Assembly: GCA_905250055.1 (NCBI GenBank)
Contig: CAJNOF010000078.1
Coordinates: 294,340 to 333,772 of the forward strand
Reading direction: 5' to 3'
Length of the DNA stretch: 39,433 nucleotides
Source of the DNA: Rotaria sp.
Taxonomy: Eukaryota
This document shows positions 1 to 35,100 of this stretch, in pieces. The notes below the pieces were generated by a model. That model was given only the letters and a program-made list of their open reading frames with translations, was not told where the DNA came from and did not search any database. Made by a program: the position numbers and the translations under genes. The stretch's first letter is position 1. Each line of letters starts with the position of its first letter.

Positions 1-607
1 CTTGAGTTTATTAACAATAATTAGAAATTATTTCAAAGTGTCTTAAACATTTGATTTTGAGTAAAAAACAAACGAGAAGAAAAGTTATACTTGTTTGACA
101 ATTTTGTTTTGTTTTCAGCAGTATTCTTATAACTGATTTCCTATGTTTAAAACATTGAAACTTTATTTCCAATATAATATAGAATGCAGATCGATTCTTG
201 AAGTAATATAAAATGAAATGTTTGTGCTTCGAGAACATTTTAGATCTTACTGTTAACCTTTTAATATTTATGGATTACGTCAAAACCGTTACTCTCCATT
301 AATGTCATATTATCATTATTTCGTTATCCTTGTTTATCAAATACACATCTGGTATATATTATGAAATGACAAATAAACCGAAGGTCGTTCTCTTGATCCT
401 TGATTATGTTCTTCTGTCTTTTTTTTCTGATTACTACACAGACCTAAACCTTGAAAATATATCACGCTTTGTCGAACATCAAAGTTTTCTATTGAATTAA
501 AATATATATTTGTATGACATGTCAAAAAAAAAAATTAATCAAAAGCCTAAAATATTATATTTGTTTATATAATTACATTCTAGATAATAAAATATCTTTA
601 GTTTTCA

Positions 608-1968
608 TTAACATTTAACAAAAATAAACCATATAATTATTATACTTATAATACTTGTTAATATTAATTTATAATATAGTATTAAACTTCTTATGAATGA
701 AAAATTCCATGGATAAATATATTTATATGTTTGATAAAATTTTTCACTTAATCTATTAACATCACCAGTTATTTCTAAAGCAATATTTTGTGCTTGTCCT
801 TGAAAAATAATTTCTTCATAATAACCATGTTGAATAAATATATTTGTATTATCTTTATTCAATGTCATATTATAAATTAATTTTGATAATCGAACATCAA
901 AATGTATATTTTTTGTAAGAAATTCTTTAACAAATTTAATCATTCGATCATCCCGTGGTCCATATAACATAGCACCAGATATATTTTCTAATTCATTACA
1001 ATATGTACTTATATGAAGTTTATATTGAAATAAAACATCATAAACATTAAATGATACTTGATTTGTAGTTGAATTAACAGATAAATCATGAATAATCGAT
1101 TGTAAATAAGTATTAAAATGATAAAACTTATTATTATATTCGAAAACAATAAGAAATCCAGCAAATTCCATATTAAAATACCATGGGATAAGTGCTAATG
1201 AAAAAAATAAACTAGCTGATGATGATGATGTTGATAAAAGATTTTTCCATTGATTAGCTTGACCCCATATCCATACTGATGGAAATGAATGTCCCCAATC
1301 TTTTTCTATATAACCTAAACCAGATATATTTTGTTTTTCATTTTGATTTATTTGAATTGAACCATAAATATTATGTGTCATACTAAGTACATGATGATAA
1401 CATTGCATTGTTGGTATCCATGAATAAGGACCCATTGTTCCTGGCATTATCCATAATAAATCAGGTATATGTATATGTGATGATAATGTTAAATTCATTT
1501 GAAAACTTTCTGTTGCATCATCATCATTATTTGGTTGAACATTAATCATAAGTTTATCATATGAAAATATATTTTTTTTATTATCAATTGTTATATAAAA
1601 TTCATCTAATGATGATGAAAATGTTTCATATGGAAAACGATAATAATGTGAAATATTATTATAAGCAACCATAATAAATGAATGTTGTTTAGTATCATTT
1701 CTATGAACACCAGGAATAATAACAAATGTATTATTATATTCATTTGAAACTATTTTATAATACCATCCTTCAAAAAATATTCCATTTTGAATATAATGAC
1801 CTGAAAGAAAAAAAAAATTTTCGAATAATTAAGAAAATTAAATATTTTTTGTTATATACCATGATAACGATCTGGATGAAAGACAAGTTTTATAGATTTA
1901 TAGTTAAAAAGTAGATAAATAAGTGCAAAAAATATGCATGCAATGGTTGCAAGTCGTGATGCAAACAT
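608..1968 (-). CDS. Tocopherol cyclase (VTE1/SXD1)-like protein, 2 exons: 1860..1968 and 608..1800 (stop 608-610), 433 aa. Predicted N-terminal signal-anchor and C-terminal TM helix.
   Basis: Exon 1 encodes MFASRLATIACIFFALIYLLFNYKSIKLVFHPDRYHG. The minus-strand 59-nt intron runs GTATAT..TTTCTTTCAG (plus coordinates 1801-1859). Exon 2 continues HYIQNGIFFEGWYYKIV...EKDWGHSFPSVWIWGQANQW... From memory these align with plant VTE1 motifs (PHSGYHF, RRFFEGWYFKV, EKNWGGGFPRKWFWVQCN). Exon lengths sum to 1302 nt, which is in frame. Confidence 0.65.
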
Positions 1969-4898
1969 GTGAGATTTTAATGAAAAATCGACAGACGAGA
2001 AAAGAAAGACAAAGAGTAACTACAGGTAAATTTATACTAAAGAATATATTCTTTTTCGAATATTATAGGCCATAGGGTACTTTATGATTATATCTTTTTT
2101 CTTCTCAAGATAAATATATATATGTTATTCAATGGTTAAATTATATGGAATATTGTAGTGTTCGAAATCGATAATGTGTCTCTGCAAGTGGACGTTTTAT
2201 TTTATAAGATTCTTAGTAGAGTACTGAGTGGATACGATTTCTTGCGTTTGTATCGAACTACTGATATTCTATTCGAGACTTACATTATTATGATACATCG
2301 CGGATAATTTAACAAAGCGATCAATTAATTATGTGATAATATCATTGAAAACACATAGAATAGTTGCAAGAACTCCCGCTATCGGAGTAAAAAGTACATG
2401 AATTTCAATCATTTTGTCTAACAATAAGGTTAGGTCTACTTTGATCGCAAGCAGCAATCCGAAGTCGATAGGTCTTCATGCAAAGGATTTACAATAAAAA
2501 TCTCTTTTTCCTTGCGCTTCGAAGAAGATGACTTCTGATTTTCTACTAATTCAATTTATGAACCTCCATTGTCTTATTAACGAAAAAAGATTCGCATGTT
2601 CATATTGTATCACACATTTCATCGCTGATTGCAATTGTGAAACTTTTAAGCAAAAACTTCATGGAAGCAAGAGATTTATTAATTGAAAATTAACTCATAA
2701 GTCAAGCAATACTAAAAAAACGTTTGATGTAAACTTTGTATTGATGATAGAAACAACATTGAGCTACCAAATGAGTGGTTTATGAATTGTACCGTTAAAA
2801 ATGAAGTAGGAACTATTGAGAGTCCAGTACGTCATAGAAGACAGCATCCAGGGTGGGTATGAATGTTCGTCAAATTTTTCTGAATGAATTCAAAACAAGA
2901 AAATTTATCAAATATTTGAACATAAACCAACATGTGGACTTGATAATAACTGAACACAATGGCAAGCCACGCTTGCAAAGCTAAAAAAATATATTAAATA
3001 TGAACTCCATGATGAAAAACTACAACAACTCATTTCAATTTGTCGTTTGATAATAAGATATTTATATTTTAAACACGCAAGAGTTTTGTTCAGTTTTTAA
3101 TGTGAATATGATATTATTCAAGTAAAACTATTTTTCTTATTGCTTTAATTTATTCTGTATGTCAAACTCAACTGTCAGAGTACTGGAAGTCGAAGTCATT
3201 GACTAGTGTTTTATTCGATAAATTAAATCAGAATTTATTTCAAAGAATTAATTACATCACACAACTTCTCTGAACAAAAGTAAATAATAAGAAAAAGCGA
3301 ACAATAGTTTCTTTATATAAACATCATTTATAGAAAAGTAAACGAAAAAAATAAAGAACAAAACAGTCATAAAAGCATTTTTGTTATTCAATCATAAACA
3401 TCAGTACGCAATTCATCAAGTAAACAGTAAGAGACTATTTGACAAAGAAAAAAAATAAAACAGGTGCAAGTGAAATTTAATATTCACATCCATACAGACT
3501 TTCAGTGAGAATAGAATTAGAAGTAAATAAAATATGTGATGATAATGCCATTGTTGATAAAACTGGAGAACTTGGCAACTACTTTTTATTGAATAAAAAT
3601 AAAGTTTTTGTTAACGTGAATATTGTTTTGATTTGTACGCTTACTCGTTCTTCGTTATAAAAATGTCTGAACCAATAAAGAAAAATCTACAACTATAATA
3701 AGTGGTATCTCTTGAGACTTTTTGTGGTTTAGAACATTCACATTCACTCTTGACTGTAATCATTTTAAGTGGAATAAATGATTCAAAGCATGCTTAATTT
3801 CAAGTCTAATACAAAAACTGAAATTATTAAACACCAGTCTTTTAAACTTAACAAGCGATACAGGAAAACATCATTGTGAATGTAGCCTATTAGAAAATGA
3901 ACGATGAAGTCTTGCATAATTAAACTACTGAAAATTCGACATTGAAACACAGATATTAATAATATAAATAAACCTGTAACACAAGAACTTACAGGAGACA
4001 TATGAACTGTGGCGTCTCCGTACTTTTAAAATTCGCTCATACAATGCCTTTCCAGAGATGGCGAGAGAAGATTTCTAAATGTGAGTCATCCATCGAATAT
4101 TTTGCCCATAAGTAAGCTCCGATGAGACTAGTAGAAGTCTATAAAGGCTTGTCTCCATGCCCTCTCTTGGACATAAAAATGCAAATAAAATTCTAGTAAA
4201 AACTTTTCAATTAACTCTAGATTGGTGACTTAATAGGACTTATCCTTTACGGTTGTTCATATCTCATTAAACTCTACCTCATGTATAGAGTCCGAATTCA
4301 AAAGCAAATGATTATTTAAACTCTCTCTCTCATAGGCGAACGTGTCGTTCATGAGATGTTGAATATCCGAAAATCATTATCTAATTTCATTCTTAAATTT
4401 CCTAATCCGATTGTTTCACTAATTCCGTGCCAGAGAGAAAAGTATTCTGCAAAATTATAATCACTTATGAAAACTAACTCTTCTAGAATTCTATTAGCTT
4501 TATCAGAGTGTATTTTAAGTAAGAATAATAGTTCGCTTAGCAACTCACACTTACAGATCTTCTCATATGAATTATGTGGCTGAAATCTAGTGACATCTAT
4601 CAATCGTATTTTTTTTATGACGTGCCGAAGAAATATTTCACCATTTATTTTTTAGCAACTGATTCATCTTGACAACATTCGCAGAAAAGAAGAAAAAAAA
4701 TTGTGTTGATGATCACGATCGAAGAAAAGAAGAAACAAAAGAAAGAAGCTTGCATACATATATATATATTTATTCGTCTCGGTTTGTATTTGTCATACGA
4801 TTTAGAGCATCACATATAAAAACATATTTTCATACATATTATTATTATGATTTGGTTTTTTTGATTGAAAAAATAAGTTTTGTTTTTTTGTTTTCTAG

Positions 4899-7800
4899 AT
4901 GAATAGTTTCAATCGTGTACGTTCAACATTACGTCGTACATTTTTTTCATCGAATGATGCCGATTCAAGTCCAAATACAACACGACGTGAAGATTTTCCA
5001 ATATTAAGTCGTCATTTATCATCATATGAACGTTTTGATTTATCAACAGGTAATCAAGGAACATCAACAACATCATTACAAAATATTAATTCAAATAATA
5101 ATAATAATACATTATCACATACACCAATTATTGAAACAACAAATGATGGTGTTGAATTTTTACCAAATAATACTAAACGTACATTACGTACAATACCAGG
5201 TGTATTTTGTCCAATAGCATTATCAATGTTTTCAATATCATTATTTATGCGTATTGGTTTTGTTATTGCACATGCTGGAATATTACAAACATTATTACAA
5301 TTTGGTCTTTGTTTTATTATACTTTTTTGTACGTTATTAAGTGTTTGTTCATTAGCAACAAATGGAGCTATTGAAGGTGGTGGTGTTTATCATATGATAT
5401 CACGTGCATTAGGACCTGAATTTGGTGGATCAATTGGTGTATTATTTTTTTTTGCTAATGTTATTGGTAATGGACAAAGTGTTGCAGCTCTTGTTGAAGC
5501 ATTAGTTGATAGTTTTGGACCCGGAAGTAAATATACAAAAAAAAATTTGAAATTTGAAATATTTATTTTTTTTTTGTAAGGTAAAGCAAATGCTTTTCAA
5601 GATACACATTGGTGGAGATTTTTATATGGAACAATAATTAATATAATTAGTCTTATAACATGTTTACTTGGTTCATCATTATTTTCTATGGCAACATTTT
5701 TTATATTTATTCTTGTTAGTTTTAGTTATCTTATGGTAGTTGTTTCATTTTTTGTTCAAAGTCCAAGACAAGTTGTTATACCAAAAGTTAATACTTATGC
5801 ATATGATCATCCACCAATAGAATTTAATAATAGTGATTTAATTTATGGACGTTATACAGGTTTTAGTTCATTAACAATGCGTGAAAATACTTATGCAAAT
5901 TATACAATTGATTATACAACTGGTGATATGATGAATTTTGCTACAGTTTTTGGTGTACTTTTTTCAAGTATAACAGGTTTATTGGCTGGAGCAAATATGT
6001 CAGGTAAAAAAAAAAAAACAAATTCAATATATGAAGTTTATTTGATAGTTCTCGAATAGAACTATATGAAATTTTTATGCTCAGATAAATCATCTGAAAT
6101 AAGGAGACATTTATTTGAGAGAAAAAGAAAATGTTCGTAGTTTTTTTTTTCGTAAGAACTCTGATTTTTCTATCGGATTCGATCGTTTTCTATTTTAACA
6201 AAGCTTAAAATAACTTTTGAGACATAGTTTAAAGTATTTGCAAAAAAAAAGAAAAATGTCACTTCAATCAAGTAAAGTTAGAGAATGGTCGTAAGTGGAT
6301 TTGATGTTGTTTTATGAAAAACAAAAGTTTCTTCAAACAACTGCCACTTTATATGGAGAGAGAGAAAAGTGTGAGATATGCAAGAATTCAAAAGGATACC
6401 ACCACTTAACCCATCTGTTCAGAGTTACAGACATTTTAGCTTCTGTCATGTTATATACCAACACATCGAACAATACTATTTCAGACTCTAGTAAAATGCC
6501 TATAACTCTGGACTGAAGTTCTAATGAGACTGTTCGTTTTGAAGTTTTGTCATTGAAATCTACCTTATGCATAGCAGAAAAAAACGAATAACGTAGTTTT
6601 ACATGTTCTTTGCAATAAAAGATAAAGCAATTGGCTACGATAAAGTTCCTACGGCAATTCTAGGTTGTCCAATTAGAAACGTAGTTAAAGAAAATAGTAT
6701 GCATGATTGAAATTTATATTGTTGATGAAAGATTCAACCTCAAGCTATTTTGATATTTTTGACGAAAGTTGATCTTGTTTTGTGGTCGACTTAAAATAAA
6801 ATCTAAGAATTTTTATTTTCTTTTTTTCCTCCTATTTCTTATATTTTTTTTTAATTCATACTTCAGTGAAAAAAGAAACCGTATTCTAGAATGAGAGAAA
6901 TCAAGTCTTATCTGTGTTTTATTGATTTTATTACAAAGCAAACATATATCGGTAAAACGAAACTAAATCTGTAATCTTATATGAATAAGAATTGTAATCA
7001 TAATAGGATGTTAAGAATTACACATAAAGAAAACAATATATTATTATTTCATAGAAAGAATATAATTGAAAATTTTATATAAAAAAAAAAATGAATTATA
7101 GAAAATAATTTATACTAATTTTTATGTTTGTTTTTTTAGGAGAGTTAAAACGACCAAGTCGAAGTATTCCAACTGGTTCTATAGCTGCTATATTTTTTGT
7201 ATTTTTTATATTCATTACGGAAACATTACTTATGGCTGCTACAACTGATCGGTGAGTGTTAAAAATTAAGTTTTTTTTTTTTTCTTTAATACAATTTTTA
7301 TTTATTATTATAGATTTACATTAACTAACAATTATTTATTTTTACAAGATATTAATATTTGGGCACCATTTGTAATAATTGGAATGATAGCTGCAGTTTT
7401 TTCAGCATGTTTATCAGGACTTATTGGTGCATCAAGAATATTAGAAGCATTAGCAATAGATGAAATTTTTGGTATGAAAATTTTCTATAGAATTTGTATC
7501 TGTCACATTTATAATGTTAAAAATAAAAAAGAAGATTCAAGTTGTCGAATTTCCCTACTTTCAAGTTCCTATCATTTTTTGACTCGTATTTCTTCTCCAC
7601 CTTGTTGATCTATCATGTTGAGTAGTCATACAAAAACAAAAGGCATTTACATAATTTTTTTTTTCTATATACCCCTATAGACTAGGGATCGACAAGCTCC
7701 GCTCACGAGGGAACATTCCCAAGTGATACCCGCCGTTTCAGCTCATATAGTGTCCAAAAGTAGATCTCGGTAAGACTAGAGAAAGCCTAAAAGGGTTCGT

Positions 7801-10800
7801 GCCATTGCGCCTTTGGAGCCGAGTTATGCCTAATTTACTGAATTTTCGACCCTTTTTAGGGTACTGCGGCTTGTCCAAACGTAACGCTGTTACGTTTTTG
7901 ACACACTCTTCTTCAACTATCTCGAAAAGTTTAAGAGCTAGGAAGTTCGTTCAAACGTCATTCGACGCAACTTATCGAACTTTATTTATCATATAAAAAT
8001 GGCCTTTTTTGACTGAAGTCTCAGGCATCTAGGAAGGTTTTATCATGGCGTAACGCTGTTACATAAAAGGACCCTTTTTTTCCAGTGCCGCCAAGAAAAC
8101 TCTAAATTCTTGCGAAACCATTTCTTCAAATGTGATGCTCCGAGAGTCTTTTTTGTAGAGCATTGAATAGGCTTTCAGGCAGTAAAAAAGATTTTCTCTA
8201 AAACATTTTTGCTCCGATAAAAAATGCAAAAAACAAACGTAACGCTGTTACGTTTTTCGTAACACTGTTACACAGTTTTTTGTTGACCAATTTTGAGGCA
8301 CTTAATGTACTCAGAATGACTTGATTTTTCTAAGTGTTACTGTTTTCTATGTAGACAATCCCCTATGCAAAAATGAGATTGATACATCGATCTGAGAGCT
8401 CATAAACTGAGCAGGAAGTTGGGAATTGTATCGAAGTCTTCAATTTGTTCTAAGCTGCCAAAGTCAAAACTAAATAGACCATTTTGTAGAGAATTTAATT
8501 CTGCATCGAATGGTATGTCTCTTGACCTTTGTTGAAAAAATTTCTTGGTTAAAAAATCCAAAATACGGTTTTTGAAAACTTTAAAATCCAGTTTTCGATA
8601 TCAAAATCTGATTTTTATACAAAATTAATACCAAATTCGTAATCAGCGTAAAAAACTGCATCTAGTACCCCACTGAGATCTGTCCAACTCGAAAAAAAAT
8701 TTTTTCAAAACTTGATCAGCGAAGTGTCGCGTTACGTGGACAAGCCGACTGATCGAAAAATCAAATTACGGAGTTTCCATCTGAAATTTCTAACATAGAT
8801 AGATATAGTTACACCTAGAATATCCTGGAAGTTTCAACCGAATAGAATGTTCCTATGTGGAGATATTGGATCTCCAAAAAATAGTCATTTGCGACAGATC
8901 TTTCACAAGTCGAGTTTAATTGAAAATGCAATAACTCGACAAAGGAACATTCTATTCGGCTGAAACTTCCAGAATATTCTAGGTGTAACTATATCTATCT
9001 ATGTTAGAAATTTCAGATGGAAACTTCGTAATTTGATTTTTCGATCAGTACCCTAAAAAGGGTCGAAAATTCAGTAAATTAGGCATAACTCGGCTCCGAG
9101 GGCGCAATGGCACGAACCCTTTTAGGCTTTCTCTAGTCTTACCGAGATCTACTTTTGGGCACAATATGAGCTGAAACGGCGAGTATCACTTGGGAATGTT
9201 CCCTCGTCAGAGGAACTGTTCGAACAGTTCTTTTGCGCTGAACTGATGAACCGGTTTGTTTGAGCTGTATTCCCAAAACAGAATACTTTTGTTCTCTTAT
9301 GGGAATTATTTCCCGAAAACAGAACAAAAGTGTTCTGTTTTGGGAACACAGCTCAAACGAACCGGTTGAGCTGAGCTTGTCGACCCCTAACTATGGACTT
9401 TACACATAATGTCTGTATCGATATTATGTATTATTCTATCTATCGAATACTATAGCTGAATGATGTTAGTTTTTTTGTATATAGAAAGTGTAAATTTTCT
9501 TATAGACTCATATAATATTTATTTAGGACCAATACTTGCTTGGATTCGAGGTGGAACAACTCATCATGGTAATCCATGGGCTGCTGTATTACTTACATTT
9601 ACACTTGTACAGGTAAGTTAGATATTGAAAAATTTTCTTTTTTGTTTATAATTTTGCTTTTTTTTTTTTGTTTTCTTAAATTTTAATTTAGTTAACTTTA
9701 TTCATTGGTTCAATGAATAAAATAGCACCAATTGTAACCATATTTTTTCTTCTTGCTTATTTTGCGGTTAATTTATCTTGTTTGGCACTTGATTTAGCAT
9801 CAGCACCAAATTTTCGACCAACATTTAAATATTTTTCATGGCATACAGCATTAATAGGTGCTGTTGGATCGATAATAATGTGTTTTATTGTATCAGCTGC
9901 TTATGCTGCTATAGCTATTGGAATTTTAATTGGTTTTATTTGTATGCTACATTTAAGAGATTTTCCTCGAGCTTCATGGGGTTCGATTTCACAAGCTCTT
10001 ATATTTCATCAGGTTTAGATTGAAATATCAATGATGGTTTTTATTTTTCGTCTGGTTTTCTTTTCTATAATTTTTAGGTTCGAAAATATCTTCTTTTACT
10101 TGATCCACGTAAAGAACATGTTAAATTTTGGCGACCACAAATGTTATTACTTGTTGCTAATCCACGTTCATCAATAAATTTAATTGATTTTGTTAATGAT
10201 ATGAAAAAAGGTGGTCTTTTTATATTAGGTCATGTTAAAATTGGTCAAATGGATCAAGGATCAAATGATGTTTGTTCACAAGAATATCCATATTGGGTTT
10301 CATTAATAGATAATATGAAAATTAAAGCATTTGTTGATATGACATTAGCACCAACAATACGTGATGGTGTATTACAATTAATGAGATTATCTGGATTAGG
10401 TATTTGAAAAATAAAATAAACTAATTGAAAATCTCAAAAAAAAAGAATAGATTGAATTTTAGAAGTTTTTTATGTTAGAATTAGAATATAAATGTTATTA
10501 TTTTTTGAAAAGACTGTTGAAATCTCTAGGGATTGAAAAATTATTCGCGATGCATGAATGATAATCTTTTATATAAGATCATCCACATCTATCCATTCTC
10601 GGAGGCTTCTTCAAGATACTTTATGTCATGTGATGAATTGCCTTCGTACTTTTTTCTCTTAGGAAAATTTTTGTCTATAGTGTTGTAAAAGAAAACTAAT
10701 TATTAAAGATAGAAATAGAAAATCATTTTAATATGAGATTCACGTATAAGAAATAATAAACATATTTCATTAAGATCTATATAAAGATGAATTATTTAGA

Positions 10801-12734
10801 TAAATTAAGATTAGTATTAAAATAGACATTGAATTATTAATTTTGTTAGTTTGTAGCAAAAGATGTGCCTTTTAAATAAAAAACAATACTTATGAAAATT
10901 ATTTATTAGATTAATCATTTCATTACAAAACTCATATAATTATATAAGAGCTGAATTGCATGATAAATTGTATTTATATTCTTTCATCATCTAAATCATA
11001 ATATTATTGTATGATTTTTTATGAAACTAATTAAGAGAAAAACAAAACAGTTTTGAACATAAGAATTTACTAAAGTCGAGCTATGAAATTAAACAGAATC
11101 TTAGATTTAATGTTGCTTAAATTCTAATTCTAGCTATTATTTTGACTAATAATATCATACAAAATTTCGAATGTATACCTTTGAACTATTTAAAAGTTTC
11201 CATTGATCTTTACAACACAGTACTCAAATGTGAACCAGAACTGTATTTTACTGGTATTCTAAATGTTAGTATGATTCATTTCTTGGTGACTGTGTAACCA
11301 AAGAAATTTTTGTAGGATAACTATTTCACGTTCGCCTCTCTTTTTTGTATATGTCACATCTTTATTTTGAGGATGTGAGTGGGAAGAGGTTTTTTTTTCT
11401 CTAAAAAAAAATTCCTTCTAAATTATTAGATCTATTTAAAAGAAATATTCTTATTTTGTTTAACTAGGTGGTCTTCGCCCAAATACAGTTATTCTTGGTT
11501 TTTATGATAGTGCTTTACCAGAAGATAAATTACGTAATCGTTCATTTTTTAAAAAACGTTGGCTGAAAACAAGTACTCCTGTTAATTTATTGGCAGCACC
11601 TACATTTCATCAACAACCTATAATTCAATCTGGTGTAATGGAAGGTGCTAGTACAATAACATTACATTCATTTAATAGTTCAACAACAATAAATGGTAAT
11701 GATATGTATCCAATATTTAATTTTGGAGGTAAGAAATATTTATTTATTTTTTGTTCTATGATTAGTTAATTTAGATTTACGTCAAGAAAATGAAGATAAA
11801 GAACTTGATGTTTATTCATATGTTCAAATTATAAAAGATGCACTTTATTTGAATAAAAGTATTTGTCTTGCTCGAAATTTTCATCAATTACACAAAGATG
11901 ATATAGAATTAAATAAACGAAAAGTTTTCGTAGATATTTGGCCAGTAAGTTTAAATTTTATTTGGATTTCATACAAATAAAAAGTAAAAGAATACATGAA
12001 AAATAGAAGTCTCAACGATCAGTACTTATAGAGAAAATTTTTAAACTTCTATCAGTCGAACAAACAAAAGTTCTTCATATTTTGAAAGTTTCATTCTATT
12101 TCAATAAATAATATTTTCAATTGACTACATAAAAATGTTTTGTTTTTTTGCTTTAAAGGTTAATTTTATCTTTCCGGAAACATCAACTCAATTTGATGTA
12201 ACATGTCTTTATATGCTTCAATTAGCTACAATTTTATCTATGGTTAAACCATGGAAAAATCGTGTTACATTACGTGTTTTTCTTTGTATTGATGCAATTA
12301 ATGATAATGCATTACGTACTCAACAACATCTTGATGAATTACTTAGTCAACTTCGTATAAATGCTCAAACACGTATGATTGCTTGGGAAAATGTAACAAG
12401 TCTATTAAATAATACATCAACAACTAATGATAGTGCAGCAACAATATCTGTTGAACAACAATCAACAACAACAACAGCAACGGCACCAACAGCAACAACA
12501 ACAACAATAACAAATTCATTTATTGATATAAATGATGTATATGTTCGTGGTGTTAATGAACTCATTCGACAACAATGTGACAATACATCATGTCTTTATT
12601 TATATTTACCACGACCACCACGAGATAAAAATCTTTCACCACGTTATATGCGTGTTCTTGATATATTATCAAATGATTTACCACCTGTTATGTTTGTTCA
12701 TGGTGTTTCATCTGTGACATGTACTCAATTATAA
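4899..12734 (+). CDS. SLC12A9: Solute carrier family 12 member 9 (cation-chloride cotransporter-interacting protein type) orthologue, 10 exons, 1018 aa.
   Basis: Exons: 4899..5526, 5581..6003, 7140..7251, 7314..7471, 9527..9612, 9692..10012, 10078..10399, 11468..11728, 11775..11944, 12159..12734. All junctions are GT..AG and phases are consistent; total length is 3057 nt. The translation is collinear with human SLC12A9 as recalled from memory: [58 protein letters not shown]|[131 protein letters not shown]. The AG at 4897-4898 abuts the ATG. Confidence 0.88.
7674..9396. mobile_element. Non-autonomous foldback/MITE-like DNA transposon (about 1.72 kb) inside SLC12A9 intron 4. Terminal inverted repeats of about 190 bp (about 7700-7866 vs 9040-9207, roughly 95 percent identical). 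Outer termini match at cccctatagactagggatcgacaagctc and gagcttgtcgacccctaactatgg. No transposase ORF.
   Basis: Reverse-complementing 9040-9230 reproduces 7700-7866 almost exactly. The right arm carries an extra ~150-bp palindromic insert (9215-9360) that the left arm lacks. A nested ~130-bp-arm inverted repeat lies at 8745-9045. GTAACGCTGTTAC palindromes recur at 7885, 8051 and 8240. The ORFs inside are short and unrecognisable. Confidence 0.75.
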
Positions 12735-25065: not shown

Positions 25066-25088
25066 GGTGTGGGTGTGGGTGTAGGCCT
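25066..25088. repeat. Short interstitial telomere-like tract (TGTGGG)3 (ttgGGTGTGGGTGTGGGTGTAGG). Similar GGGTGTGGGTGTGA tracts occur at 23755-23771 and 28521-28535. Each is followed 25-45 bp downstream by an inverted CACACCC(ACA) partner.
   Basis: Read directly. TGTGGG is the bdelloid-rotifer telomeric repeat unit; this is established knowledge, but its relevance here is an inference. Confidence 0.5.
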
Positions 25089-26904
25089 TTATCTTCTCTT
25101 CACTCACACCCTACTCAAAATAATACTGGATGTGTGCTCGGAATTATATTGGCAATAGCCGTAATGAACTACAAATTTTATTGAGAGTAGAAATTACATA
25201 AGAGCCAGATCGGTCGGACCCGACACTGATTAAGCAAAGCTTGATTCGGACCGGGCAAGCCTAACGCTTTTCTATGCCATTCTGGACTTGGCCAAGCCAT
25301 GAAAAAGTGGCTGGTTTCGGGTCTTACTAGACATTGGAATCATTGCTTGCTTCTGCTTTTTTCTTATAAGGTTTTTTTTAATTATTTTGAATATGCTGAC
25401 GAAAAGAATGCCAAGATGGTGGGCGCAAGTTCACTTTAAAGACACAGGTCTTTCATTCCTACTCAGCGTTGTATATGGATATATTACACCAATGACTGCA
25501 AAGTATATGATTAAAATGAACATTGAATGACATAAAACAAAACTTATCTCTTTACTTTTAAATTTTAACTAAATGTTATTTCAAAACTTCAGGTTAGTAT
25601 TATGCATTAAAAAACGAAAAGAAAAGATTTGAATATATGCATGTCTACTTCCTATATTTCACAACTCTTGTCTTTTTTGTTACTGACCTAAGAAAATAAT
25701 ATGCAGTTGAAATCATTGAAATACAGAATAAAAATAGCAGTAAAAGCTTTTCTAATCTAATGATGTATCAGAGAAAAATCTCTATAGTGGTTTGCTGAAA
25801 AATCAATGAGTTTCTGATACCAATGAAGACTATAAAGCAAGAATTTTATTTTGATTACTTTGTGTTTTCAAATGATGTAATATTTCAATGTCTGTGTGTA
25901 TCAAACATCATCATCTATTTAAATGAATCTTATTGATATCAAATAACAACTACAAAATGATATTAATATATTTCTTTTTTTATCATACCAATAGATCGAA
26001 AAAACAAGAAAAGCCTCATGATGTCTGATATACATAGACATTGAAATATTACATTATTTGAAATAAAAAAATAAAAAGAAAACTACAAAAATAAAATTCT
26101 TGCAGTTTCGTCTTCAGCGACATTAGAAACTCATTGTGCTTTTTCTAATCTAAACTAGTTAAAGGTTTTTTTAACACATAATTTCATTTCATGAACATTA
26201 CTCTTCATGTCAATAGAGATATATGTTATAACGATTCCAAAATAAAAACTGATGGTTTTCATTTAGATTAGAAGTTATGACTAAAAAAACAGCATAATAT
26301 TGGAAATATAAGTGCTTCAGTGAATTTTCTAATAGTTTCATTCGAATTTTCCAAAAAATAATAGATTAGTTTTTTACAACTCCTTTGAGCAGCCTTTATT
26401 AGATATAATAACACTTTTAAAGATATTCCTGTCATAGTGATCAATAAAAAAAGACGCCTTTGATTTGTCAATTTAAATGTCATAACATTATTGACAATTG
26501 TTCAAGAATTCATCCACAACTCGTATTTCAATATGATATTGATAACTATTAAAGACAGCAAACCTATTGTCCATGTAATATTACTCTCATTTAATTTATC
26601 GTAATGAGAAATATTTGGTGCAAGAATATTTCAATAGTTTCAAAAAGTAAGTATATTGACATTTTTATTATTATTCATACGATTATGGAATATAGAAAGC
26701 GAAAAAGTCCAAAAACAGATCATTTGATGTTTGTATCTACAGCATGAAAAATTGCACATGCATCCATAAGAAAAATTTTTAGTGATGAAGAAACACAGCT
26801 TACTAATGCTTGTTTCAAAAAAAAAAGGCGGGTGAGTATTTTTTTTGAATAACTTTTGAATAGATTTAGCTAGAGAATTGAGGTTTTGACCATTAGAAAG
26901 AAAA

Positions 26905-27295
26905 GATACAGACTCATCGAACCATACATGAAAAAATTTTTCTAACTACTTTCCTAACAGTTTTAGTCAAACGTTCTCAAAAAATTGCTTTTTTTCATAC
27001 GTTAAAAAAGGTGATTTTTCGTCCAAAAAACTACAAAAACTTAAATTTTTCGATTATTTTGTTGAAAAAATTGAGTAATAAATTGCAATCCAATAGTTAG
27101 TATATCTTGCTGGTAGTGGCTAGGAATAGAATTTTTATATAGTTTTGTAGCTCTTCATCTGGTGGTTCTAACACACTCCTGAAAACCAATAAATTAATAT
27201 TGCGACTATGACACGCATGCTGCTTTTCTAGAAGTTTTATATAAAACTGTTACGAAAGTAGTTAGAAAAATGTTTTCATCTATGGTTCGATGCGT
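26905..27295. mobile_element. MITE-like element with ~57-bp terminal inverted repeats (gactcatcgaaccatacatgaaaaaatttttctaactactttcctaacagttttagt vs its reverse complement at 27236-27292) around a ~270-bp AT-rich core.
   Basis: Reverse-complementing 27236-27292 reproduces 26905-26962 with few mismatches. Confidence 0.6.
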
Positions 27296-27901
27296 CTTTA
27301 TCTTCTCTTCCCAATGGTTAAAACCGCAACTCTCTAGTTCAATCTGTTCAAAAGTTATTCCAAAAATGTCCACTTGACTTTTTTCTAAATGGGCATTAGT
27401 AAGTTTTTAATTCTTATGCTGATTTTTCTTGCTGTTGTTGATAGCCATAATCAAGTTGTTGACTCTGCTCATGTTGTTGTTGAGCGTCTCGTGTGCGCTT
27501 TAATTCTGTAAAAAGTATTTGTAGTTTTTCTTTTATAGAGAATCAGAGGACATTAGACAGACAGATGGTAGAATTTCTCGGCCTGTTCATCAGTTTTCTC
27601 GAAAGCGAAAATGTGCATACAACTTGAGTATGATTTTATTCCATAGCGCATCAAAATTGTTCATACACTTAATATTCAAAAACTTTTTTAATTCTAAATC
27701 ACCTATATTTCGAACTTTTTTTTCATCGTCTGATCTTCTCTCACTATCTGCTATATCTGGATAGTCATTGAGCAAAAAGAATTTTCTATAGCTCCATGAC
27801 ATTTGAACCAAATGAGCTAATTTTTCTTTCCTCATAATAGTGAAGGGCTCCAAATGCTTTTTGCCAAATATAAACGATAGATTTTTGGTTTTTTTAATAT
27901 G

Positions 27902-27987
27902 ATTCGAGTTTAGAGGTGAGAAAGTTATTGTTATTTTTTTTTGTTATTAATAACAATAACATTAACTTTCTCACCCCTATTCGAGTT
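27902..27987. repeat. Near-perfect 86-bp palindrome/hairpin (ttcgagtttagaggtgagaaagttattgttatt ... aataacaataacattaactttctcacccctattcgag).
   Basis: Read directly. The arms are about 35 bp and the loop is AT-rich. Confidence 0.6.
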
Positions 27988-29183
27988 CCTCATGTTCTTA
28001 ATTTTTTTCAATTGGTTAAATAATTTATTTACGATATTTGACTTTTTGCTTAGCCTATCTAGATTATCTAAAACTCCACAGAACGTTTTCAGCTGTTTTT
28101 AAACAAGAAACCGCTCAAAAATCCAGTCGACTACAGTGAGCTTGTGATAGATTACATCCATGAGTAATCAATTGCAACGATACATAGGTATCGAAAAAAT
28201 CTTTGTATATTCCATTTTATAGAGTTTATTATGCTAATCATTTTTTGTAAAGGAAAATTCTATTTTGATCTACAAATAATGGTGTTACAGTTCAATTACT
28301 GGAACATCGAGTTGCTCAGGATCACAGGACGATTTGATGTTTTCCGCTGATTTGAAGCCCGCAATTTTATTTGCTGATAAAAATAGAAATATTTTTACAA
28401 GAATAATCAGAGAAGCAAGCTATATAAAATGAGATATGTCAACAAATTTTTGGATACGTTTTTCGTTTTTTATTGTTGTGATTACTTATGAGAATAGCTG
28501 GTAAAAACGGGTGATCGGCGTGTGGGTGTGATAACGATGTTGGTCTCAACCAAATCCACACCCTCTTTTTGTCAAGAAAAAAAATGTAGGAGTGAATATT
28601 ATATAATCGCTATAGTTTCGTCTTTTCTTGCAATTGGAAGTTGGATGAATAGTGTTAGCGAATTGTGTTCACAATACTGAGAATCAAATCTTTTTTTTGC
28701 AAAACTATTTTTTCACTTTCTTGTACTCATGGAAGTGCGAGTGTAGGTATGCATGCGCTTGTTGATCTTTTCTGCGGCATCATCCTCACCCATATCCACA
28801 CCCTGAATCGCTTGAAGAGATTTATTTTTCCTCTTATCATATGGTGAACATTATAACAATTCTGTAAGCCATCTAGTAGTTTAAATATCTAGTCGAGTCA
28901 TTTACACAATTGGCGACAATATCCACAGTGAAGTGCATTAGTGTCGTGCTTGGTGATTTGCCGACATTTTCACAATATATCTCTTTCATCGGCTTGTGCA
29001 ATAACATAAAATACATGACATGACATGTGCAGAATTGTAAAGAAAAAAGTCAACAGCATTGGCCTACTTACTTTTTTCTCTTTTTCTTTCTCTCAAACAC
29101 TAGATACTTGAATATTAGTCATCATAAAAACGATAAAATGAATATATTTGTAAATTAATTAGAAAATTATTGATTACTTTCAG

Positions 29184-32100
29184 ATGAAACAAACGACTAC
29201 ATCTACTCGATCTATGTCACCATTTAACGGTAAATCGATCGTCCTCGAACTTGGCCATGAAATAGGCTTCAAGGCTAAACAAGAACTGATCAACTATTTA
29301 CGAGAACAGAAAGCATATATTTCATATATTCTTACAGCTAGTGTACGGTCTATATCTATTTCACAAGTATTCTGTTGAAGTTGACTGCTGTTTTTTTGTA
29401 GACTGACTTCGTTTTGGTTACCAATAATGTAGACAGCTACAAAACACGCCGTGCCAAACAGCTCGGCTTGCCATTAGTCAATGTTGAATATGTGTACGAG
29501 TGTCGTCGTTTGTCACCTGGTCAAACATTGGTTGATATTAGCAAATTTATTATCAAGTCAGTTGAAGACCAGGAAAATTTTACAAAGACTGGTACTATTT
29601 CCGTCACAGGTATTACAAGATTTCTTTTTTTTTTTTTTTTTGAAAAATCATATCAGGCGTACCTATTTGTTAGGATCCCGAGCAAATACGACCAAAAATA
29701 ATAAAGTCGATTTGACTAAAATCAAGATATGGAATTCAGACGATGTTGATTTGCCTCGTTTCGATGAATTAACACATTGTGAAATTGGCAAATGGGCAAT
29801 TTTTAAAGTACAGTTTTATTCATATACTATAACAATTGTTCTTTTATAACTCCACTGTTTGTAACAGGAAACTAATGATAATTCAGATGTATTTTTTGTT
29901 CTTGAACTCCAAGTTATTCCTGAAACATACTACGATCAAACAACAAGCGATTATCGACTACGATTTCGATATGAAAAACAAATTATTGTTGGTGAAAGTC
30001 AAAAACAAGATAAAAAAGTCTTGATACAATATGCGTTTGGCAATGATCCAAACGAACAGCTACAATTATTTACATCATACTATTATCGTGTAGCTACAAT
30101 GCCACGTGTAACACGAATTCGTGAGATGTTACCGGATAAATTAGGATCCAAACTATTATTACGTGTAAGTCAATAATGCTAAAGAAACGAAAGTATTTTC
30201 CAAAAACAAAGATACATTTGTAGTCTTTATTTACCCATCGTATCGATACACAAATACTCGATGAGAATGTATGTCAATTGATCGAATCGATTTGGCTAGA
30301 GTCAATAGGTGATCTAAATAAAATTTTGAGCGTACAACCTGAATCAATCAATCTTAAAACAGTATACATATTCATTTTGATACATTCAAATTATAGATAT
30401 TGTCTCATATTAATAAATAGATCATTGAAGCCGAAGCTGCCCTACTCGAACTTAAATTGACCAATGATCCAGCTGCAGCACTTCGTTTCTATTCACTTAT
30501 TCCTCATCGACCAGAGTATAATGTTGATCTCATAAAGAATCGTCGAACATTGACCGACAAGATAGATTTATGCCAAGTATGTCTATTTCATTCAAATATT
30601 TCATTTAATCTTCTTTATCATTCAGATGCTTCGAGATATGCTAACAGTCAACGAACTAACTAATTGGAATGTTAAAGCACCGATTGAAGCTAAATATCGA
30701 GCATTAAAATGTCACATTGAAGCGGTAGATAGTTCAAAATCTGAATTTAAGAATGTTGCTGATCTCATTCAATCGTCAACGGACAGGTAATAAGAAGTGA
30801 AGTTCGATTTCATAATGATAATTTGGTTTTGACTCACTAGTGATGAAAAAATTATTATTCACCATGTCTTCAGTGTAGCCAAACAAACAGATGCACTCAA
30901 TTATTGTACATCACTATCTCATCAACGGCAACTATTTCATGGATCGAAATATGCTAATTTTCTTGGAATTCTGTCACGGTAAAATATTATTTCTTCATTC
31001 TCTAGACAGCATTTATAGTACGATCATATACCTTTAGTGGTTTGGCTATGCCAAAAATGGTTGTTGAAGAATTAGGTGTCGTACGTACTGATATTGGTTG
31101 TCTCGGTTATGGGATTTATTTTTCTGATTCTGCTTCTACATCTCTGAAATATACAACAGCAAGTACAACACGACCAGGTCGAAGATTATTGTGCATCTGT
31201 CAAGTAGCACTAGGCGAATCGGCTAATTATTATTCATTTTCACCGACTCTTACTAAACCTCCCAATGGTTTTCATAGTGCCCATGGAGTTAAGCGAACGG
31301 AGGAAAATCATTCAATGTTTACTGTAAGTAGTTTGTGTTCTGTCAACAGGATCATAACTGCATCGCTGAGTAATAGAAAAATGTGCAGCAGCGACAGAGA
31401 ACACTGTGTGATAGTGTTCGACTCGGATGAGATCACGAAAAAGACATTTGGATCTTGAAGTGGATCTGCAGTTTAGACATTTTCCAGATACAAAAGACAG
31501 TCTGAATGTTTTGTCCGTTTCGAAGTCCTATCAGATAAAGTAAAAAAGCTTAATCAAACAAAAATTTATATATGGTTCGATCTTTTCTTTCCCTTTCACA
31601 GAATTTTCCTTATTGAAATCAAGCAAACAAGAAAAAACTATATCATCTAATCGTTTCGTGTCAATAACAAAATATTGACGAAGCATTAAAAACAAATAGA
31701 AATTAAGGACATATTCTTTGTTTCTAATCATGACATGAACGAAAGAAAAAAGGAATTGAGAAATTGCTTCTCTCGAAAAAAGGAGACAAAGTAATGCTAT
31801 TCATTGCGTAAAATTTTTGTGTTGGATAGAAAAAAAATAGATCATTGTATTCTCTATGTATGCTACAACATGATGACAAATTCTAAAAAAATTTATCAAG
31901 TGTTTTGTAGTTTTCAAAGTAGTTAAGTCAGCTGTGAAGAAAATAGCTATTGTTTCAACTCTACAAAATTACCTTCATGTCGGAATCTTTTACCAGAGCT
32001 TGCATAGCATCCTTCGTTTATTTAACAATTTCTTGACGTAGATAACGTACAAGTACAATTAATCAAACAAATGTCAGCGTGATAGTGATGACCATCGCTG

Positions 32101-35100
32101 GTCATATCGCAAAAATATTTTTCTCAGAGATAAAACAGAAAACTCTCAGTCTTCTAATATGTGTAACACGTCATTCTAGAAAACAAGAGTTTCAACTGTC
32201 TTCTTGTATTTGAGAAGACAAAAGTGGTCAAAACATCCTGTTCAAGTGAGAAATAGAACCAAAGCCGAGCAATGTATCTCCATGTAAAAAAGTGCAGCTC
32301 TTTCTCAAGTCACAAACATTGAGTTGTAGAAAAAAAAATAGAAATTATCAGACTTATACATAATGTGAGATCGAGAATCTTCGATAATGTGTCTCAATTA
32401 GGTCTCTGTCAGTTTTATTTCATGGCTAATATGATGGATTTGAAACTCTAATTGAAATTCATCAGAGACCAAATTAAGACTTAACATTGAGGACCATACT
32501 ATTTCGAATATCTTTAATCACGCCATACAAAAATTTAATCTTTATCAAAATAGGATAACGAATATGCAATCTATCAACTTGACCAACAACGTCTACTCTA
32601 CATTGTGGAAGTTTCATGGGTACCAAATGATGCTCTCAATATTGAATTAGAACGATTACCGATTGTTCATCATCAACAACATACATTAAAATTGAGTGAA
32701 CATGGTAATGATAATTTCCATTTTTTGTTAAAATAAAAAATTAGATCAATTTATCTGTTACGTTCTAGTCGAAGTGCCGTTGACAATCGACGATGAAGTC
32801 ATTGAAGTAGCTGAACAAGACTATGGTTTAATATGTCCTTCGTCAGGAAAACTTGTACCACTTAAATCATTTCATATTCGTGCTCAAATTGTTGATGCTA
32901 CAGTTGAAGTAATTATACTTATCTTTCTGTTGATATCATACTACATAGTTCATCCTATTGTCTTTTCAACGAAAAGGTTGTTCTTTATCAAGTCTATCAT
33001 AATACAAGTTCGACACCAATTGAAGCCAAATATGTATTTCCTCTTGATGATAATTCAACTGTATGCGGTTTTGAAGCACATATTAACAATAAAGTTATAA
33101 AGGGCATCGTCAAGGAGAAAGAACAAGCTAAAAAAGAATATCGAGAAGCAATTGAAAAGGGTCATGGTGCTTATTTAATGCATCAAGAACAAGCTCAAGT
33201 ATTCAGTGTAGCTGTTGGCAATCTACCAGCGAACAATGAAGTCATTATCAAGATAACTTATGTTGCTGAATTAGAAATCGAAAATGGTGATATTATTTTT
33301 CGCCTTCCAGTCAAAATGGCTTCATGGCAATCAAAACAAGCGATTGAAAGCAAAGATCAATCGATTGTACGAACCATCGATATTATAGATGAAAAAGTCG
33401 AATTTAGTTTTAAGGCATCGATTCGAATGCCCTATGAAATAACTAAATTATTCTCGCCAACACATCGTCTTCGTCGAAAATTAACCGACTGTATAGCCAT
33501 GATCGAACTTGTTGATAACGTTTTAATTGATCGAGATTTCGTTCTTTCGATAACACTCAAAAGTGCTAATCTACCTCGAATATTAAACGAAACATTATCA
33601 TTGGATGGTGACAGCGAAACAACAACGACAACATCGAACAATGTTGATTCTCAAGCATGTATGCTGACATTTTATCCACGATTCGAAACATTAACAAATT
33701 CGTACGAACATATTGAAATTATATTCATTGTTGATGTGTCGAATTCGATGGATGGTACACATGTACAACAAGCTAAACAGTTAGCACATTTGTTTCTTAC
33801 GAATTTGAAAGCAGGCGACATAAATACATATTTTAATATAGTGACGTTTGGATCAGGTAATTAGATGATCATCTGTAGTACTATTTTATTGTTCACATTT
33901 GAACTATTTAGATAATGATGAATGTTTTCCTATTTCAACATCAACTACAAAAGAAAATCTTGATAAAGCTAAACACTTTGTTTTGGTTGGTTGTTTATTT
34001 TGAATGCAATTTTTTCTTTCAAAAATTTATGTGTTTACATATTGTAGCATTCACTTGTTCATCGTGGTAACACGAATCTATTTGCTGTTCTTCACCGTTA
34101 TGCATTGTTACCATCATCAAATTTTGGTCGACAATTTATTATTCTCTCTGATGGACATATTCATGATCTTCAATCGATTCTTGTTTTACTCGAACATCAA
34201 TCAACTATGCGTCGAGATCGTATATTTGCATGTTCAATTGGTAATGTTGGTAACAAACATAGTTTGAAACAATTAGCAAATGGAGCAAGTGGAGGTGGTC
34301 TAACAATCGTATTCGATTCGAATTATCGATCGAAATGGAAAACAAAAGTATTAAATATTCTCGAACAAGTTCGACAACCATGTGTTACAAGTATATCAAT
34401 TGATTGGCATGGTCGTTTTGATGAACAACAAAAATTTAATATGCAAGCACCAAAAATAATTCGATCATTGTTTAATGGAATGCGACTTAGTGTCTATCGA
34501 TTTATACAAAATTGTCATAAGGCCATATTAACAGCTACTATCGATGGACAAGAATATGTTACAACTGTATTTAGTAGTGCAACGACAACGACGAAAGGAC
34601 GTATCCTACACTGTTTAACCGCTCGAGCAATTATCGATGATTATGACAATGGGTTATTGCATGTAGATGAAAGTGAAAATGAACTGATGAAAGTTCAATA
34701 TAAACAAGATCTCATTGATCTAAGCATCAAACATTCAGTCGTTAGTGCATACACTAGTTTCGTTGCTATCGAAGAACGTGATACTAAAACAGATGCAAAA
34801 ACTCTTCAATCAGGTTAGTAGAAAGTTAAATAGAATGTAATTAATTGCTATCGATAATCATAAGCATTATTGTTTTATTCTATTAATAGTTCGTTTCGTA
34901 AAGTTTTAACTCTTCAAAAACTTTCGAAGAAAAAATTTGATTCTTTTTTACTAATGCCTATTACTATTAAAAAAATAGTCGACAATGTACGTTCTATTAT
35001 AGGTGTTCGTCTTCTTGATGTTATGCTCGATCGAGATGTTGACTTATTACCGTACATTGGATGGGATGGTGATATATCAACTTTGGATACAATCAAACAG

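Follow-up and report, generated by a model that had tools for sequence, protein, structure and literature searches.

A tocopherol cyclase-like gene with two predicted membrane anchors in the bdelloid rotifer Rotaria, related to methyltransferase-fused eukaryotic proteins

The plant and cyanobacterial tocopherol cyclase VTE1 (SXD1; slr1737 in Synechocystis) is a plastid and plastoglobule protein without transmembrane (TM) anchors. In tocopherol synthesis, the cyclase and subsequently the gamma-tocopherol methyltransferase (gamma-TMT) catalyze the last two steps. "Tocopherol cyclase-like" (TC-like) proteins of unknown function were earlier noted in heterotrophic bacteria, and the motifs YxEKNWG and FP+xWxW+QxNxF were proposed to be catalytic in VTE1 as well as in the bacterial TC-like proteins (PMC4963081). 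Furthermore, an analysis of gene neighbours reported an enrichment of tocopherol cyclase, among other families, next to heliorhodopsins and proton-pump rhodopsins (10.1101/2021.02.16.431466). Here, a TC-like gene is described that is encoded on the minus strand at positions 608-1968 of a 39,433-nt stretch of Rotaria sp. DNA (contig CAJNOF010000078.1; this whole stretch is referred to as the window). Its spliced product is 100% identical to the NCBI protein P0001 of the bdelloid rotifer Rotaria sp. Silwood1. Judged from sequence similarity, the rotifer gene belongs to the TC-like branch of Pfam family PF14249 and is no VTE1 orthologue. In our reading, for which a probability of about 0.5 is estimated, the gene is an ancient acquisition that encodes an intact, membrane-tethered, lumen-facing and cofactor-independent TC-like isoprenoid cyclase, most likely closing the chromanol ring on a prenylquinol. 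The identity of the gene, its integration into the genome and its foreign TC-like (non-VTE1) ancestry can be stated with high confidence.

The gene contains two exons. Exon 1 (1860-1968, minus strand) encompasses the start codon, the N-terminal hydrophobic anchor and the HPDRYHG motif, i.e., residues 1-36 and the first base of codon 37, and exon 2 (608-1800, minus strand), derived from the listing of open reading frames (ORFs) and reconstruction of the splicing, encodes residues 37-433 with the stop codon at 608-610. The sole intron (1801-1859, minus strand; 59 nt, GT..AG, phase 1, 13.6% GC) directly follows HPDRYHG, and the spliced translation yields a product of 433 amino acids (aa). In this protein HPDRYHG corresponds to residues 31-37, IFFEGWYYKIV to residues 44-54 and EKDWGHSFPSVWIWGQANQW to residues 202-221. 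The FFEGWYYK block (1754..1777, minus strand; residues 45-52) contains E47, G48, W49 and Y50, which show a conservation of at least 90% across the family alignment, and the core family motif YIEKDWGHSFPSVWIWGQANQW (1247..1312, minus strand; residues 200-221) is the presumed catalytic region. The N-terminal TM segment or signal anchor LATIACIFFALIYLLF (1906..1953, minus strand; residues 6-21) was assigned by hydropathy and by a helix at residues 2-21 in an AlphaFold2 (AF2) model, the Kyte-Doolittle mean for residues 6-22 being 2.32. The C-terminal TM segment LILTSIISIIIIWFIFV (617..667, minus strand; residues 415-431; AF2 helix 413-432) has a mean of 2.95 and is followed by the two-residue tail KC, and all remaining 17-residue windows of the protein reach a hydropathy of at most 1.5. 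The peptide blocks, the 59-nt intron and the two hydrophobic ends, all quoted in the original prediction made from the DNA alone, were borne out by splicing, hydropathy and AF2 helices; as to the TM prediction it had proposed as a check, both termini are hydrophobic and modelled as helices.

The hidden Markov model search proposed in the same place was passed as well: PF14249 (Tocopherol_cycl) matches with 51.8 bits (E = 8.6e-14) at a gathering cut-off of 26.6, well above what chance would give. It is the sole Pfam match at E <= 1, and the CrtC and AttH Pfam families were unmatched. Searches of NCBIfam and of PDB sequences with the rotifer protein and the family profile gave no match. When 1.84 billion representatives were scanned exhaustively with HMMER, the family as a whole came to 1384 representative clusters at E <= 1e-3, and to 142 at a threshold of 1e-30; the matches to homologues reach E-values of 1e-46 to 1e-66. 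TC-like proteins score 170-216 bits against the rotifer protein, and several hundred prokaryotic proteins of the "tocopherol cyclase family" align along the entire domain, with identities of 28-36% and scores of up to 178 bits. The alignment with Arabidopsis VTE1, whose reference sequence (residues 73-465) was rebuilt from the optically recognized text of S2 Fig in PMC4963081, is limited to two motif blocks with 32.7 bits over 66 aa and 24.6 bits over 21 aa in BLASTP, and Arabidopsis VTE1 forms a very long separate branch at which the Kimura distance is saturated. The rotifer motifs Y200-I-E-K-D-W-G, F209-P-S-V-W-I-W-G-Q-A-N and F45-F-E-G-W-Y are invariant or at least 90% conserved in an alignment of 56 sequences. 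Since the family comprises 1384 clusters in the scan and VTE1 matches in its motifs only, the blocks that had been taken as diagnostic of VTE1 are instead signatures of the entire PF14249 family. The best 80 prokaryotic loci originate from Anaerolineae and other Chloroflexota, Bacteroidota, Methanobacterium, Methanosarcina, Promethearchaeota, Clostridia and others, and none of these 80 is cyanobacterial.

The AF2 model was built on 56 sequences and has a predicted local distance difference test score (pLDDT) of 89.6 and a predicted template modelling score (pTM) of 0.88. It predicts an all-beta core at residues 45-381 between helical stretches (2-29 and 384-432), with the double-barrel fold of the AttH/CrtC type; the structural resemblances listed were AttH (21.2), the CrtC-domain kievitone hydratase (18.9) and 25-phosphosteroid lyase (16.0). 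All 23 invariant columns of the alignment are kept in the rotifer protein, amongst them Y200, E202, K203, W205, G206, F209, P210, W215 and N219, and the conserved residues E47, Y50, H172, D204, Q217, E329 and E379 are kept as well; for this reason the protein looks catalytically competent. Two candidate N-glycosylation sites appear to be bdelloid-specific. The sequon N85-I-S (1649..1657, minus strand) lies at a position where N-x-S is found in 17 of 17 bdelloid vs. 1 of 39 prokaryotic sequences, and the second, N139-L-T (1487..1495, minus strand), at a position with N-x-T in 14 of 17 bdelloid vs. none of 39 prokaryotic sequences. The C-terminal TM is followed by a basic tail of 2-4 residues. 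The sequons, the signal anchor at the N-terminus and this TM with its basic tail jointly suggest that the barrel domain faces the lumen of the endoplasmic reticulum (ER) or secretory pathway and is glycosylated there.

Orthologues of the window protein are present in R. sordida (83% identity), R. socialis (75%), Adineta steineri (69%), A. vaga (61%) and A. ricciae (59%). The intron occupies the identical codon position in phase 1 in the window (59 nt), in A. vaga (57 nt) and in R. sordida (76 nt), and the protein P0027 of a second paralogue is a read-through of an intron at the same site. The nearest gene in the window is a divergently oriented SLC12-family gene (4899..12734, plus strand; AA_permease and SLC12 domains in Pfam), which lies outside the TC-like gene and serves as synteny anchor. 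The A. vaga orthologue is located on the 20-Mb chromosome CP075492.1 at a distance of 616 nt from a divergent SLC12/TIP41 gene, an arrangement as in the window, and the same divergent SLC12 neighbour is found on a Rotaria-like genomic contig (L085). The GC content at third codon positions (GC3) is 7.6% in the TC-like gene vs. 4.8% in the adjoining SLC12 exon, and the window has no N, so that 1968-4899, for which a check of the flank had been recommended, is contiguous sequence. From the intron position, the synteny in A. vaga and L085, the host-like GC3 and the absence of N it follows that the gene is integrated in the host genome, and shared intron position, SLC12/TIP41 synteny and codon composition exclude a contamination or chimaera. 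A BLASTN search of plasmids with the TC-like gene gave no match. As to the other neighbours, Pfam identified TIP41 at 12976-13371 and a PARP catalytic domain with VIT/VWA at 31042-33864, which supports at the level of Pfam families the SLC12A9, TIPRL and PARP4 genes named in the original prediction. Its central claims, a location in genuine animal DNA, a probable non-metazoan ancestry and a domestication of the gene, found support; the juxtaposition with metazoan genes is real as well, but it is expected rather than startling, as foreign genes are commonplace in bdelloids. Two details were noted at these loci. The intergenic distance between TC-like gene and SLC12 is approximately 375 nt in L085 vs. 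2.9 kb in the window. The A. vaga model at L001:4518-9385 joins AA_permease/SLC12 and TIP41 in one 1238-aa product, which is probably an annotation fusion, as in the window 240 nt lie between the C-terminal exon of SLC12 (12135-12734) and that of TIP41 (12976-13371).

For the closest relatives, hit lists with the best 120-150 matches per search, most of them nameless, were evaluated. The best non-bdelloid match in the exhaustive scan is P0270, a protein of 817 aa, which is 34% identical to the window protein over 409 aa (216 bits). Both proteins contain the identical 15-residue block PGTMGPYSWIPTMQC, and they share a C-terminal "GD...YPW..S" extension that is not found in prokaryotes. Among the matches listed, the best matches of P0270 itself are bdelloid proteins. 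P0270 is encoded by a single uninterrupted ORF on the 222-kb Joint Genome Institute (JGI) contig Ga0606239_0003, the neighbours of which are eukaryotic and intron-poor (SNF2/HSA, MutY-like, WD40 and PH+VASt). A second protein, P0355 (893 aa), was found on transcript-sized contigs in SRR28720660/61 and is 30% identical to P0270 over the full length. Both proteins (L088:8880-12454, L089:101-2782 and L090:31-2712) have the same layout with an N-terminal TM, the TC-like domain, a 'YPW' linker, a further TM and a methyltransferase domain. In neighbour-joining (NJ) trees (324 columns, 200 bootstraps), the bdelloid sequences from Rotaria, Adineta and Didymodactylos carnosus are monophyletic with 100% bootstrap, and they are joined by P0270 and P0355 with 92.5%. 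Further outward, with weak support, follow P0041 and P0121, then P0388 from the choanoflagellate Diaphanoeca grandis and then the P0296 cluster, which includes a Parmales alga; the deeper nodes have a bootstrap of at most 56%. Among the matches listed, the nearest relatives thus belong neither to VTE1 nor to any one bacterial group, but to a few scattered eukaryotic proteins of this anchored layout with a double beta-barrel domain.

P0041 and P0121 had been considered as sister group of the bdelloids (69% bootstrap); after P0270 and P0355 were added, they are placed one node further out. Two environmental contigs (L084:1-1074 and L087:29-1108; JGI 3300030741 and 3300030743) are intron-less and transcript-sized. 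The TC-like proteins they encode look secreted: they start with a signal sequence, contain numerous N-x-S/T sequons and lack the C-terminal TM. Their place in the tree is close to the clade of bdelloid and fusion proteins.

About 70 prokaryotic homologues begin at HPxxYHG and are devoid of terminal hydrophobic segments. The N-terminal TM is kept in the bdelloid orthologues and is also present in P0270, P0355, P0041, P0121 and P0388, and the C-terminal TM is kept in both bdelloid paralogues and in Didymodactylos and is homologous to the TM that precedes the methyltransferase in P0270 and P0355. Because these sister proteins have the same order of N-terminal TM, domain, 'YPW' linker and TM, the anchors and the C-terminal linker probably existed already in the donor lineage of the bdelloid gene, or in a lineage that has the gene in common with the bdelloids. 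The two anchors, which had been regarded as gains within the rotifer, were thus probably not acquired there. That the bdelloid proteins have eukaryotic sisters from which, or together with which, the anchors were inherited is reasonably likely. On the same comparison, the intron is a later gain on the bdelloid stem that preceded the split of the two paralogues, since P0270, P0355 and P0041 have none at the rotifer site. The rotifer gene hence looks like the anchored module minus the methyltransferase. The entry into the bdelloid lineage would predate the divergence of Rotaria, Adineta and Didymodactylos and was followed by the duplication into two paralogues. Vertically related orthologues in related animals, which the original prediction had named as an observation that would speak against it, were, among the matches listed, encountered only inside the bdelloids, namely in these three genera.

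The fused domain provides a lead to the function. The methyltransferase domain of P0270 aligns end-to-end with Arabidopsis VTE4 (39% identity over 304 aa, 196 bits, E = 3e-65), a match that is a strong lead rather than a clean test; the best solved methyltransferase in the PDB is MitM with 82 bits. A UbiE-type methyltransferase adjoins P0270 divergently in L088, so that this locus of an intron-poor eukaryote has the appearance of a compact pair of tocochromanol-type genes. Going by these domain matches, the branch nearest to the rotifers appears to be tied specifically to a tocopherol-type methyltransferase. As cyclase and gamma-TMT act in succession in tocopherol synthesis, the fusion of a cyclase with a gamma-TMT-like domain points to chromanol chemistry. 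In the fusion proteins, the methyltransferase would be placed in the cytosol, where S-adenosylmethionine is available.

In the mechanism proposed for the rotifer protein, the N-terminal signal anchor would insert the protein in the ER or secretory membrane, and the barrel domain would be lumenal, N-glycosylated and tethered at the membrane by the C-terminal helix. E47, Y50, H172, Y200, E202, K203, D204, Q217, N219, E329 and E379 would then protonate the trisubstituted C=C bond of a membrane isoprenoid without any cofactor, and the resulting cation would be captured by a neighbouring hydroxyl group, most likely so that a prenylated quinol is closed to a chromanol. Prenylquinones of dietary or endogenous origin would in this way yield a lipid antioxidant or allow its regeneration. 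A chromanol-forming activity as such is a tentative assignment, for which the odds are somewhat below even. That bdelloids and scattered heterotrophic eukaryotes with the same anchored cyclase, in some of them fused to a gamma-TMT-like domain, close the chromanol ring themselves and thereby make or regenerate vitamin-E-type antioxidants from prenylquinones is unlikely; if true, this would break the textbook restriction of tocochromanol synthesis to photosynthetic organisms and would explain part of the desiccation and radiation resistance of bdelloids.

Several observations weigh against a lumenal chromanol-forming cyclase. A homologue of the methyltransferase is absent from the window and from three other rotifer loci examined, and no partner of a prenylquinol pathway was identified in the rotifer loci examined. 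Evidence of expression was not found, and neither the literature searched nor, within it, the supplements of bdelloid transcriptome and horizontal gene transfer papers mention a TC-like gene in rotifers. Biochemical data for TC-like proteins outside VTE1 do not exist (PMC4963081). NJ was the sole tree method, and the VTE1 reference was the rebuilt sequence. The C-terminal helix is mostly lost in L085 and in several environmental orthologues, so that the constraint on the gene is only moderate, and the ratio of nonsynonymous to synonymous substitution rates (dN/dS) of the TC-like gene is 2-3 times that of the adjoining SLC12 exon (0.55 vs. 0.21 for the species pair with L085). Finally, what accompanies the more distant TC-like genes of prokaryotes are carotenoid operons, heliorhodopsin and photolyase and not quinone genes, which points to a different substrate class: in 16 of 82 prokaryotic loci, carotenoid or retinal genes lie at a distance of at most 6 kb from the TC-like gene.

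These neighbourhoods form the basis of the main alternative, in which the rotifer protein is an enzyme of carotenoids or retinoid precursors that hydrates or cyclizes psi-end groups, as do CrtC and CruF, and acts on dietary carotenoids in the rotifer gut or membranes. Colinear carotenoid operons with a TC-like gene were found in Anaerolineae and some Bacteroidota (L033, L050, L056, L076, L071, L057, L007 and L075). The same-strand operon L033:1363-11059 encodes CrtB, an Ldh/Mdh-like dehydrogenase, a lycopene-cyclase domain, two alpha/beta hydrolases, the TC-like protein, a CruF-like protein (Caroten_synth), a PlsY-like acyltransferase, GT2 and a CrtD/CrtI-like protein, and in L071 and L057 the order is CrtI, CrtB, TC-like. 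The position of TC-like genes within such operons suggests an undescribed step of carotenoid metabolism. Heliorhodopsin (PF18761, E = 7e-94) adjoins the TC-like gene in two Methanobacteriaceae loci (L006:7192-8025 and L013:4852-5748) and is also found near it in the Anaerolineaceae locus L036:7277-8083, in line with the listing of tocopherol cyclase in the analysis of rhodopsin neighbours (10.1101/2021.02.16.431466). DNA photolyase is encoded near TC-like genes in four loci (L036, L052, L068 and L074) and PNPOx in three. The contexts in Maribellus and Draconibacterium (L002, L003) alone were uninformative and the pattern emerged on clustering the 82 loci, in which ORF calling was crude at high GC content and long antisense ORFs hid the TC-like gene in about 12 of them. 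Taken together, the family is thus tied to isoprenoid lipids and to light or oxidative stress. However, the operons already hold a CruF-type hydratase and a lycopene-cyclase-domain protein, the bdelloid clade lies outside the operon-associated subclades and groups with the methyltransferase-fused eukaryotic proteins, and a text search found no report linking phytoene biosynthesis genes to bdelloids. A carotenoid substrate for the rotifer enzyme is judged to be unlikely.

As to the origin, an acquisition by the bdelloid stem lineage has to be weighed against a vertical descent, in which an ancient eukaryotic or holozoan gene would have been lost in nearly all other animals. TM-anchored relatives do occur near the bdelloid clade in the choanoflagellate D. 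grandis (P0388) and in a stramenopile alga (Parmales, P0296 cluster), and the literature reports homologues in corals. But no other named animal is among the matches listed, the nearest sister proteins are encoded in an intron-poor eukaryotic genome that does not resemble that of a rotifer, the deeper nodes that would have to carry a vertical descent are weak (at most 56%), and very many independent losses would be required. Vertical inheritance is accordingly regarded as quite improbable. An even smaller chance is given to a direct transfer of a soluble bacterial, plant or cyanobacterial cyclase with de novo gain of both anchors and of the intron. In its favour, prokaryotic homologues without TM segments are abundant, with 28-36% identity, and the intron was clearly gained after the transfer, or is at any rate missing in P0270, P0355 and P0041. 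However, P0270 outscores all prokaryotes among the matches listed (216 vs. at most ~178 bits) and already has both TMs as well as the 'YPW' linker, and the node that unites it with the bdelloids has a bootstrap of 92.5%. A plant or cyanobacterial donor in particular was ruled out by the weak similarity to Arabidopsis VTE1, by the phylogeny and by the lack of cyanobacteria among the best 80 prokaryotic loci.

Following the acquisition of the gene, two paralogue clades are recognized in bdelloids, A with the window gene and B, both of which are present in Rotaria sp. Silwood1, and a TC-like homologue is also found in Didymodactylos carnosus. Intact TC-like ORFs were found in at least seven species. 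According to the Nei-Gojobori method, dN/dS of the window gene is 0.63 vs. R. sordida, 0.40 vs. A. vaga and 0.55 vs. L085, values that are only indicative at a GC3 of 8% and an extreme AT bias; they correspond approximately to a purifying but relaxed selection. The L085 orthologue (L085:838-2109, Logan assembly of DRR314038) has no intron and ends with QYYKMIRSFFFSMN and the stop codon after a T-run. A. steineri contains tandem TC-like copies on the same contigs (P0258, P0262 and P0268), some of which are annotated as fused proteins of 791-815 aa; this indicates that the gene was amplified locally in this species. Given the intact ORFs and the retention of the catalytic residues, a pseudogene was rejected; the gene is intact and, from its sequence, probably functional. 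A decaying or non-catalytic remnant such as a lipid-binding barrel, or an assembly contaminant, deserves hardly any credence: dN/dS is fairly high (0.40-0.63), the C-terminal helix is lost in some species and expression data were not found, but the ORF is intact in every species seen, each invariant family residue is kept, two paralogues were maintained since before the bdelloid radiation, and intron, synteny and codon composition exclude contamination.

Three further features of the window were observed. GC3 shifts sharply within the 39 kb, from very low values at 1-6000 (7.6% in the TC-like gene, 4.8% in SLC12 exon 1) to 26-33% in the genes at 16000-35000. A single-exon ORF of 351 aa at 16363-17418 (minus strand), located between the TIP41 and PARP4-like genes, encodes WWE and NAD:arginine ADP-ribosyltransferase (ART) domains. 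Another single-exon ORF of 323 aa at 21651-22622 (minus strand) matches Pfam YrhK (PF14145, E = 1.3e-16) and has a GC3 of 33% vs. 5-8% at the TC-like locus. As the YrhK family is mainly bacterial and fungal, this ORF could be of foreign origin too, in addition to the TC-like gene.

By itself, a further foreign gene is nothing unusual for a bdelloid, and the interest of this locus lies in its architecture, its relatives and a chromanol hypothesis that can be tested. In the large non-VTE1 branch of the tocopherol cyclase family no member has a known function, and the locus joins three leads, i.e., an animal copy with a predicted membrane topology, the fusion with a gamma-TMT-like domain in the sister proteins as a "Rosetta-stone" link to chromanol chemistry, and the prokaryotic gene neighbourhoods with carotenoid genes, heliorhodopsin and photolyase as a link to light and oxidative stress. 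Should chromanols be the product of the rotifer enzyme, part of the vitamin-E pathway would be present in an animal, which would matter for the antioxidant biology of anhydrobiosis. If carotenoids are the substrate instead, the family would supply a missing enzyme of carotenoid or retinal metabolism.

Compared with known systems, the rotifer protein shares with VTE1 the PF14249 domain and the FFEGWY, Y-x-E-K-[ND]-W-G and FP..W.W.Q.N motifs, and presumably also the cofactor-free ring closure driven by protonation. It differs from VTE1 by the N- and C-terminal TM helices and the N-glycosylation sequons, and its host is a non-photosynthetic animal. With the prokaryotic TC-like proteins it has all invariant residues in common at 28-36% identity over the whole catalytic domain. 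These are soluble proteins of 320-340 aa that begin at HPxxYHG, many of them encoded in carotenoid, heliorhodopsin or photolyase neighbourhoods, whereas the rotifer protein has ~30 additional N-terminal and ~45 additional C-terminal residues and its gene an intron. The AttH/CrtC-type structures compared, namely kievitone hydratase (7a0q), AttH (2ich), the fungal decalin Diels-Alderases CghA/Fsa2 (6kbc and 7e5t) and 25-phosphosteroid lyase (9fzn), are cofactor-free enzymes acting on hydrophobic isoprenoid, polyketide or steroid substrates. They resemble the predicted fold, but the identity in the structural alignments is 7-15% and no sequence similarity to any PDB chain is detectable.

The greatest likeness is to the fusion proteins P0270 and P0355, as judged by reciprocal best matches, the well-supported common clade, the same architecture and the identical block PGTMGPYSWIPTMQC; these carry a C-terminal gamma-TMT-like domain of ~300 aa that is not found in the rotifer gene, and they have no intron at the rotifer site. 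Finally, the gene resembles other foreign genes of bdelloids in its probable non-metazoan ancestry, the acquired short intron, the host-like codon usage, the metazoan neighbours and the conservation across genera (PMC3499245, PMC4632278, PMC11258130), but in contrast to these its nearest relatives are eukaryotic and not bacterial.

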